In this document: positions 9,447 to 10,364 of the stretch, piece by piece
How the letters are laid out: each line of letters begins with the position of its first letter
Position numbering within the stretch: the first letter of the stretch is position 1
From: a phage
Reading direction: 5' to 3' (one strand)
Sequence record: OR896157.1
DNA: 64,000 bases
The notes under the pieces: generated by a model
Told to the model about the DNA's origin: nothing
What the model saw: the letters and a program-made list of their open reading frames with translations, nothing else
Database searches by the model: none
Made by a program: the position numbers and the translations under genes

Positions 9447-10364
9447 TCATTTGAACGGACGAATCATATCAAAGTTTTCTTTAAAGCGTTTGACATAATC
9501 AGTCTTTCCAAGTTTCTTATGCATTGCAACTATCTTGTGGTAGTTTTCCCATGCATATTCGCGGAACCAACCAGATGTAATAGAAGTACAAACTTTTTCC
9601 AAAGCGTACATAAATGAACCAGTAGGGTCCGGGTTAAAGTTATTTGGAATTTGATGACGTTCCAAAGCAAGTACGCAAGTTTCTTCATATACACCCGCAA
9701 GTTTAATTTCTTCAGGCAGAGAATCAAATTTCTCTTTTGAAGTCATTACTTCAGAACCGTCTTTCATATAGAAAGTGTAAGCAGGACGGCCTGCTAAGGC
9801 TACTGCTTCATGAATTGAGTCATGGTCGTAGATGTAAAAATCATCTTTGAAGAAAGAATCTTTATCTACATCCAGATTAGGATGAGAATATGCTAATGTC
9901 TCTTTCTGACGCAGTTCGGAAATCTTTTTAAGACTTTCGTCCAAAACAATTCCTTTATTACGCAAGAAACGAATATGATGCATAGTCTTTTGGAAGAAAC
10001 GAGTGTTCTTCTTGAAGCGATGAGACAGTTTAATTGCTAAACACATCTCAGGAGTTGCCCAGTACATCTGAGACAGCGCATCGTAGCAGTCACGGAACAG
10101 CGCATAATTTGCAAGCATTTCAGATGAAGTGTTTTCATCATATTCAAAAATGTATGCTTCAAAATAAGTCTCACGACCGTTGTGCATGCATTTGAAAGCT
10201 TGTACATTAGGAGATTGAACTTCAACCTCTGTGCCGTTCATACGGTTTTTGAAATGAAGCCATTCGCCTGGAGACGCAATGAAGTCCCAATCAGAGTTCT
10301 TAACATCACTATAATCAATGAGACCATGGTGATGTAGTGCTCGAGAACCAATAACCAGCAACAT
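9447..10364 (-). CDS. putative nucleotidyltransferase-fold protein
   Basis: N-terminal VIGSRAL...x15...SDWDFI fits hG[GS]...DxD of the Pol-beta-like NTase fold. Confidence 0.35.
   Translation of the reverse strand: MLLVIGSRALHHHGLIDYSDVKNSDWDFIASPGEWLHFKNRMNGTEVEVQSPNVQAFKCMHNGRETYFEAYIFEYDENTSSEMLANYALFRDCYDALSQMYWATPEMCLAIKLSHRFKKNTRFFQKTMHHIRFLRNKGIVLDESLKKISELRQKETLAYSHPNLDVDKDSFFKDDFYIYDHDSIHEAVALAGRPAYTFYMKDGSEVMTSKEKFDSLPEEIKLAGVYEETCVLALERHQIPNNFNPDPTGSFMYALEKVCTSITSGWFREYAWENYHKIVAMHKKLGKTDYVKRFKENFDMIRPFK

Follow-up and report, generated by a model that had tools for sequence, protein, structure and literature searches.

The gene described here lies on the minus strand at positions 9,447 to 10,364 of a stretch of phage DNA of 64,000 nucleotides (sequence record OR896157.1), which is hereafter called the window and belongs to a Karamvirus-like T-even phage. 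The gene consists of exactly one open reading frame (ORF) and encodes a protein of 305 residues, here designated NTase, which is 98% identical to WOF01264.1 of Enterobacter phage vB_Ent31. It is located in the hyperplastic region that extends from e to the tRNA genes, between nudE/e/denV and the tRNA cluster, in agreement with an earlier note on this DNA that had placed it in a variable early region; the matching region of T4 contains e.2-e.8 only. The protein has a complete and invariant set of predicted catalytic residues and, as its structural model shows, a Pol-beta-like nucleotidyltransferase fold. Small acidic proteins are encoded in tight linkage with it, and the two together point to a phage module of two proteins that has not been studied so far. 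The gene, its domains, and the two partner genes in the window are arranged as follows.

9447..10364, minus strand: NTase gene, ATG at 10364, stop codon at 9447-9449
10065..10364, minus strand: predicted N-terminal catalytic alpha/beta domain, residues 1-100
10349..10344 (G6-S7), 10292..10290 (D25), 10286..10284 (D27), and 10160..10158 (E69), minus strand: codons of the predicted catalytic residues
9450..10064, minus strand: predicted C-terminal all-alpha domain DUF7275, residues 101-305
10031..10029 (K112), 9824..9819 (H181-D182), and 9686..9681 (E227-E228), minus strand: codons of DUF7275 residues
11043..11327, minus strand: partner gene 1, small acidic protein of 94 residues from the ATG at 11327, ending in ...VWLSSSDMC; a GTG at 11354 begins the full ORF
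10801..11034, minus strand: partner gene 2, paralogue of 77 residues with an internal ...DWQSSDC... and a terminal ...VWYTSSC (phrog_899, E 1.4e-8)

The N terminus of NTase, MLLVIGSRALHHHGLIDYSDVKNSDWDFI, contains G6-S7 and D25-W26-D27. The earlier note had recognized here a GS...x15...DWD pattern. The pattern is present and is not a product of chance, as G6, S7, A9, D25, and D27 are invariant among 32 homologues of 44-81% identity (the main alignment), but its spacing needs correction since 17 residues, not 15, lie between S7 and D25. E69 is likewise invariant in the N-terminal part of these homologues. When the alignment was widened with members of 34-40% identity and with actinophage members, G6, S7, A9, D27, and K112 were still invariant, position 25 was always D or E, and an acidic residue occupied the position of E69 in all long forms. 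The hG[GS] element of the superfamily corresponds to the invariant V-I-G6-S7, with a predicted strand at residues 2-5 followed by a helix at residues 6-12, and the [DE]h[DE]h metal pair corresponds to D25-W-D27-F on a predicted strand at residues 26-30. A third catalytic acidic residue, which the earlier note had proposed to look for, is apparently E69, on a predicted strand at residues 64-72.

An AF2 model built from the alignment of the 32 homologues (pLDDT 91.1, pTM 0.85) showed a strand-helix-strand arrangement at the GS and DxD motifs and a small sheet with E69, followed by ~200 residues of helices. The alpha/beta part of the model is superposable on solved nucleotidyltransferases. The MenT toxins were the best structural matches, and ANT(2'')-Ia, LnuA, TM1012, and the Helicobacter pylori nucleotidyltransferase 4ok0 were also among the top ones. 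Foldseek, used as a second method, likewise placed MenT1 at the top (E 3.4e-3, probability 1.00) and gave no match below E 1e-3. A fold outside the nucleotidyltransferase superfamily, the result that the earlier note had named as fatal to its assignment, was thus not obtained. The assignment by itself is unsurprising, and at least one GenBank record, that of Pseudomonas phage REC, already names its homologue 'nucleotidyltransferase'.

Database searches assigned residues 3-88 to Pfam DUF7277 (E 2.9e-28, 98.8 bits, cut-off 27) and residues 107-292 to Pfam DUF7275 (E 2e-77, 259.8 bits, cut-off 27), and the protein matched phrog_2141, a PHROG without an assigned function (E 1.8e-139, 465.7 bits). 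Only these two DUFs were detected when all 32 homologues were searched against Pfam at E up to 10, and NTase had no matches in NCBIfam or PADLOC. Sequence searches of the PDB (phmmer and profile) found no solved relative; the single match, to PsaB, was spurious. In the literature, no paper mentioning DUF7275, DUF7277, PF23940, or PF23942 was found. The label 'unknown substrate', which the earlier note had given to the protein, is correct. The mean pI of the 32 homologues is 6.2, with 4.8 for the N-terminal domain and 8.6 for the C-terminal domain.

DUF7275 makes up the last two-thirds of the protein and is its best-conserved part: in the main alignment the mean column identity is 64% in the C-terminal domain versus 44% in the whole protein, and the domain is conserved in phages of Proteobacteria and of Actinobacteria. 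The polar residues K112, H115, K126, R152, H161, D174, H181, D182, and H185 are invariant, as are E227, E228, E235, R236, S261, G265, and the stretch T-S-I-T-S-G-W-F-R. DUF7275 most likely forms the pocket for the acceptor and for the base of the nucleoside triphosphate (NTP), and this domain of unknown fold is probably the part that sets the substrate. When the C-terminal domain was folded and searched alone for HD, HEPN, or another known domain, nothing appeared above noise; an HEPN identity was thus rejected, and an HD-like nature of DUF7275 is unproven. Both its fold and its substrate-binding or catalytic site may be new. A metagenomic homologue, P0056, shows 70% identity over DUF7275, and in this protein the N-terminal domain is replaced by a lipoprotein-like signal sequence and PF06693. 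It is either a genuine domain swap or an assembly chimera, the contig being 3 kb long.

The family is present in 733 of 50,697 phage genomes. The window protein matched 2,303 clusters at 90% identity and 1,612 clusters at 50% identity (E at most 0.001). Among the carriers are Straboviridae (T-even-like), Phapecoctavirus, Otagovirus, Menderavirus, Vibrio and Aeromonas phages, uncultivated jumbo phages of 300-370 kb, and actinophages. In 185,579 prokaryotic species genomes (one genome per species) only five loci were found, all on contigs of metagenome-assembled genomes and probably mis-binned phage, so that the family is effectively phage-only. Neither a homologue of NTase nor a gene for its partner was found in coordinates 1-80,000 of T4 (80 kb). 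A form of ~250 residues, of which the N-terminal domain is much reduced and lacks the insert at residues 30-100, represents a separate large branch in actinophages (788 clusters matched by the protein of phage Muntaha). This short form retains GS, DxD, K-x-S-H, Y-D-H-D-S-I-H, E-E, A-L-E-R, and T-S-x-x-x-G.

The neighborhood comparison in relatives that the earlier note had suggested revealed a conserved small acidic partner. All ORFs within 6 kb of NTase at 94 loci were clustered, and the loci were sorted into 25 lineages with less than 60% NTase identity between them. A single neighbor family recurred across many lineages, namely acidic proteins of ~60-140 residues encoded on the same strand and mostly upstream of NTase, and no other cluster extended over more than 5 of the 25 lineages. 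An iterated hidden Markov model (HMM) combined with a pattern for the C-terminal tail W-x-x-S-S-x-x-C located one to three genes for this tail protein beside NTase in 22 of the 25 lineages, on the same strand within 6 kb. They are usually directly upstream, but Mendera and L091 have them downstream. Of the three lineages without a tail gene, two are actinophage short forms, and in the third NTase lies 350 nt from the contig end. The tail family corresponds to phrog_899 and has neither a Pfam family nor a PDB relative. W, one S, and the terminal C are invariant, the second S is near-invariant, and a variable body composed of a helix and 'GYGMGG' precedes them.

Partner genes 1 and 2 are the sole matches to the tail HMM and the tail pattern in the window; no others matched the pattern among 1,513 ORFs, which were drawn from the window together with 80 kb of T4 and 50 kb of Bcp1. 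The product of partner gene 1 matches phrog_899 (E 6.6e-23) and no Pfam family, and its gene is annotated as a coding sequence (CDS) of 94 residues in vB_Ent31. A tblastn search with the tail protein detected 476 phage records, with one place per genome. The numbers of records with the tail protein and with NTase were 253 and 260 in Escherichia, 57 and 59 in Aeromonas, 34 and 36 in Enterobacter, 34 and 35 in Klebsiella, and 18 and 18 in Shigella phages, and the tail gene was 0.1-0.8 kb upstream of NTase in every genome for which both coordinates were listed. The reverse search from the tail protein against a large protein database gave 22 matches only, owing to the word prefilter; of the matches looked up, two again adjoin DUF7277/DUF7275 genes and one is on a contig that is too short. 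In the protein encoded at 10801-11034 of the window and in paralogues of L021, L034, L045, and L089, the tail motif occurs twice, once internally as ...DW-x-SS-x-C-YGEG... and once at the C terminus. This duplication suggests that the motif is a repeatable unit and not merely a C-terminal tag. T4 Tk.1 (L009 347-535, 62 residues) weakly matched the N-terminal helical part of the tail HMM (E 4e-6 in a small local set of ORFs) and is without the W-x-x-S-S-x-x-C tail.

The short-form NTases adjoin a distinct family of small acidic proteins, which has the motif GYYxSWxGGxWDG...EV.P and no Pfam family. Its genes were located as follows.

L007, 4621-4920: short-form partner, start overlapping the NTase stop
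L008, 4360-5557: short-form partner, start overlapping the NTase stop
L103, 5779-6141: short-form partner, start within ~20 nt after the NTase stop
L104, 5800-6213: short-form partner, start within ~20 nt after the NTase stop
L105, 5741-6070: short-form partner, start overlapping the NTase stop

The overlap was thus seen in at least three of six loci, and Gordonia phage Bachita has three tandem paralogues of this partner. Homology between the short-form partner and the tail family was rejected (hhalign probability 0.2%). On a 695-kb contig, a protein of 150 residues encoded directly downstream of a short-form NTase (L101 5768-6220) contains ...CWDGGGTWWNSSYSDD..., which joins WDGG and W-x-SS elements. 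Judging from these elements, it could link both partner families.

NTase was compared with known systems. MenT1, MenT3 (TglT), and MenT4 (DUF1814/AbiEii; PDB 8an4, 6j7n, 6y56) are bi-lobed like NTase, with an N-terminal alpha/beta nucleotidyltransferase lobe and, after it, a helical one. They share with NTase the GS and DxD motifs, a lysine in the first helix of this second lobe, and an adjoining gene for a small protein. Unlike MenT, NTase has no DUF1814 sequence match in Pfam (query and 32 homologues, E up to 10) or in PADLOC, and conservation is highest in its helical lobe of ~200 residues, which is without a solved relative. MenT is phosphorylated on a Ser/Thr that precedes the first Asp by two residues (PMC10435456), and this position is not conserved in the NTase family. 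In the C-terminal motif IV of MenT, a conserved Lys that is specific to the toxins is followed further on by an Asp (K189/D211 in MenT3, K137/D152 in MenT1). The MenT proteins belong to chromosomal toxin-antitoxin systems whereas the NTase family is confined to phages, and the NTase partner is unrelated to the MenA/AbiEi antitoxins; no AbiEi-like gene was found among the neighbors.

RlaP (PF10127) is likewise a phage-borne Pol-beta nucleotidyltransferase with RNA ligase and Pnkp genes nearby in some genomes. It has GS...SDxD with a spacing of ~9 between GS and DxD, compared with 17 in NTase, has a different C-terminal domain, and occurs in bacteria too. NTase has no Pfam match to RlaP, and hhalign of the Bcp1 member of RlaP against the NTase family gave a probability of 0.8%. 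Identity with the 'phage NTase' proteins for which Ho et al. described the synthesis of cyclic dinucleotides (Bcp1, Av05) was rejected. The Bcp1 protein matches Pfam RlaP (1.6e-17), and only the superfamily SDxD motif ('SDWD') is shared. T4 nrdC.11, a 'nucleotidyltransferase' in RefSeq, was rejected as a homologue for its RlaP-type GS-x-LYGT...SDVD motif. T4 NrdC.11 (L100 5435-6445) and Bcp1 gp127 (L095 43152-43913) share the RlaP-type GS-x-LYGT...SD-x-D motif. The Bcp1 protein was reported to make 3'3'-cGAMP (bioRxiv 10.1101/2022.06.09.495361), and the two published roles of RlaP-type proteins, RNA repair and the synthesis of competitor cyclic dinucleotides, are not reconciled.

ANT(2'')-Ia, LnuA, TM1012, and 4ok0 are proteins of 155-225 residues with a small helical lobe; they have no sequence relationship with NTase and lack DUF7275 and a partner protein. 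The pair GlnD-PII resembles the present one by analogy only, in that a Pol-beta nucleotidyltransferase domain precedes a helical one in which His and Asp residues are conserved, and the enzyme works with a small protein. Neither sequence nor structural similarity to CD-NTases was found, nor the head-neck-body architecture and family match of CCA-adding enzymes and poly(A) polymerases. The comparisons with cGAS/DncV-like and CCA-adding enzymes drawn in the earlier note have no support other than the superfamily motif that all of them share. Membership in the DUF1814/AbiEii/MenT, RlaP, CD-NTase, and CCA-adding families was rejected by sequence.

Genes of RNA repair recur near NTase. A PF09414 RNA ligase gene ends 8 nt upstream of NTase in L103, and one is located 0.9 kb upstream in L105; L101 has genes for both an RNA ligase and a LigT-type 2H phosphoesterase within 5 kb. 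Pnkp is found near NTase in 11 loci and Rnl1 in 8 loci, and phage Muntaha encodes a polynucleotide kinase 2.7 kb upstream. In all, about six lineages have an RNA ligase or Pnkp gene within 6 kb, with direct adjacency in L103. Other common neighbors are NadV, RNR, MazG-like, SLOG/DprA-like, NADAR, and calcineurin-like phosphatase genes, so that the RNA-repair signal is real but not exclusive. tRNA clusters lie near NTase in the window, Mendera, and Bachita. The cluster of the window comprises 19 tRNA genes, including three for tRNA-Met, at 14804-20057 on the minus strand, 4.4-9.7 kb upstream of NTase.

Further features around the NTase gene in the window were as follows.

10421..10393, minus strand: promoter-like site TTTACA-17-TATAGT with a TG extension, sigma-70/T4-early-like, directly 5' of the NTase gene
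9428..9443, minus strand: GC-rich hairpin GGGCC-UUCG-GGCCC, located after the NTase stop codon and before the ribosome-binding site of the following gene
10394..10801, minus strand: intervening ORF, 135 residues as listed; the CDS at the matching position in vB_Ent31 is shorter (~113 residues)
7999-8361, 8358-8717, 8680-9036, 9039-9413, 10394-10801, and 11305-11970, minus strand: six ORFs with a common FIxxCR motif

GAGG is present 9 nt 5' of the NTase ATG. The promoter-like site is a consensus match only, and such sites in the region are not above the shuffled expectation; its placement upstream of the gene is suggestive. The hairpin was detected on the plus strand; its sequence is palindromic, so that an identical stem arises in the minus-strand transcript, and no U-tract follows it on the minus strand. 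The intervening ORF has no Pfam match, and its membership of the NTase module is unsupported. The six ORFs, which flank NTase and are otherwise dissimilar, share the end (D/E)xF(I/V)xxCR followed by basic residues; the motif is degenerate (FIQGIR) in ORF 7999-8361, and several of the proteins resemble small membrane proteins. Since the codons differ, the motif is conserved at the protein level and is not a DNA repeat. Outside the window it was found mostly in T-even-like loci, for example in the e.5-like gene of phage moha, and this confinement led us to reject it as a part of the NTase module. A conserved antisense ORF inside the NTase gene, seen in 10 lineages, was rejected as a by-product of sense-strand conservation.

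We tentatively favor, at somewhat below even likelihood, the reading that NTase is an active transferase of nucleoside monophosphates (NMPs) on RNA 3' ends that works with the small partner or under its control. On the basis of its sequence and model, NTase would be a catalytically competent, Mg2+-dependent enzyme of the Pol-beta superfamily, in which a minimal MenT/ANT(2'')-like core (G6-S7, D25-x-D27, E69, and K112) is fused to the novel helical DUF7275. With an NTP as the donor, it would add one or a few NMPs to an RNA 3'-OH, most plausibly that of tRNA, and it may act early in infection in the repair or remodeling of tRNA ends, after the manner of RlaP and MenT enzymes. The equivalent Asp and Lys are needed for the toxicity of MenT1 and MenT3, and in MenT3 also for tRNA nucleotidyltransferase activity (PMC7450476, PMC10435456). 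RlaP, an RNA-ligase-associated Pol-beta nucleotidyltransferase, adds 1-2 NMPs to damaged RNA 3' ends (PMC12776372). An RNA 3'-OH is favored as the acceptor because the nearest structures are those of the tRNA-extending MenT enzymes and because RNA ligase and Pnkp genes recur nearby, as with RlaP. Since conservation among phages with unrelated hosts is higher in DUF7275 than in the catalytic domain, the substrate would be a universal one. The small acidic partner would bind NTase as a regulator, adaptor, or inhibitor; it is unlikely to be a universal substrate since the pocket residues are kept in the actinophage form without the tail protein.

Several points weigh against RNA as the acceptor. 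The choice of the acceptor is inferred, and the mildly acidic protein does not have an obvious RNA-binding profile. No RNA ligase or Pnkp gene lies within 6 kb of NTase in the T-even-type loci, including the window, and early genes of nucleotide metabolism, for example NadV, RNR, and MazG, generally abound in the NTase regions. The absence of cellular homologues is unexpected for an enzyme on a universal RNA, and a near-obligate partner with an invariant Ser-Ser tail suits a protein acceptor equally well.

A protein acceptor, which we consider rather unlikely, would be the tail protein itself. NTase would place an NMP, or a phospho-linked group derived from NDP-X, on a Ser of the W-x-x-S-S-x-x-C tail, and DUF7275 would bind the tail and possibly, if HD-like, also remove the modification, by analogy with GlnD acting on PII and with CitX/MdcG acting on acyl-carrier proteins. 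The Pol-beta nucleotidyltransferases GlnD, GlnE, and MntA modify protein hydroxyls. The near-obligate linkage in a variable gene order is consistent with this possibility, as is the restriction of invariance in the small protein to the few tail residues while its body varies. One to three paralogues per locus, some with a second internal motif, fit a recognition tag better than an inhibitor, and a phage-only enzyme is expected if its substrate is encoded by the phage. However, the actinophage form of ~250 residues keeps the catalytic and pocket residues with no tail protein within 4-5 kb, and the partner beside it is unrelated and has no Ser-Ser-Cys tail. It is less probable still that NTase and the tail proteins form a self-contained, phage-specific protein-modification system of the GlnD/PII type, in which the Ser-Ser tail of one to three variable effectors is nucleotidylylated and DUF7275, rich in His, Asp, and Glu, may reverse the reaction. 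If this were true, small phage effectors with an early action on the host would be armed or switched by the system. We know of no description of viral post-translational tagging of such a kind.

We regard it as improbable that NTase is a MenT-like poison of translation, which would shut off the host, for example by extending or blocking the 3' ends of its tRNAs, while the small acidic protein acts like an antitoxin and plugs the active site, as MenA1 does for MenT1. The MenT toxins are the best structural matches, the order of the small acidic gene and NTase, on one strand with the small gene first, recalls menA1-menT1 (PMC10435456), the stop/start overlap of the short form is typical of toxin-antitoxin pairs, and the carrier phages bring their own sets of tRNAs. 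Against these points stand the lack of AbiEii/DUF1814 matches and of the conserved Ser/Thr. In addition, other genes separate the partner from NTase in the window and in other T-even-type loci, with gaps of up to ~1.9 kb in that lineage, and the window also has a promoter-like site between the two. It would be unusual for an 'antitoxin' to occur as several paralogues and with duplicated tail motifs, and an addiction module has no obvious role in virulent phages.

An enzyme acting on small molecules or nucleotide signals, either a modifier like ANT(2'')/Lnu or a maker of (cyclic) oligonucleotides that interferes with host immune signaling, is similarly doubtful: it would agree with ANT(2'')-Ia, LnuA, TM1012, and 4ok0 among the top structural matches, with the acidic N-terminal domain and a conserved pocket rich in His, Asp, Glu, Tyr, and Trp, with neighbors of the anti-defense-island type in several phages (MazG-like pyrophosphatase, NadV, Sir2, NADAR, HD phosphatase), and with the precedent of the phage enzymes of Bcp1 and Av05 that make competitor cyclic dinucleotides (bioRxiv 10.1101/2022.06.09.495361), but that precedent is of the RlaP family, no CD-NTase, cGAS, or OAS was among the structural matches and PADLOC gave no match, the small partner is left unexplained, and conservation over very different hosts argues against a host-specific antibiotic as the substrate.

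Beyond the earlier note, the present analysis brought out a separate and better-conserved domain over two-thirds of the protein, the restriction of the family to phages, and the small-protein partner. The DUF7275 domain, the distribution, and the partner gene are new, and the partner offers a concrete and cheap experimental handle. NTase represents one of the larger uncharacterized enzyme families in virulent tailed phages and is without a cellular counterpart. Because its predicted active site is intact, it resembles tRNA-modifying toxins, it is expressed from the early region, and it is locked to a small partner, the family is a credible candidate for a new mechanism of host takeover, tRNA repair, or anti-defense.

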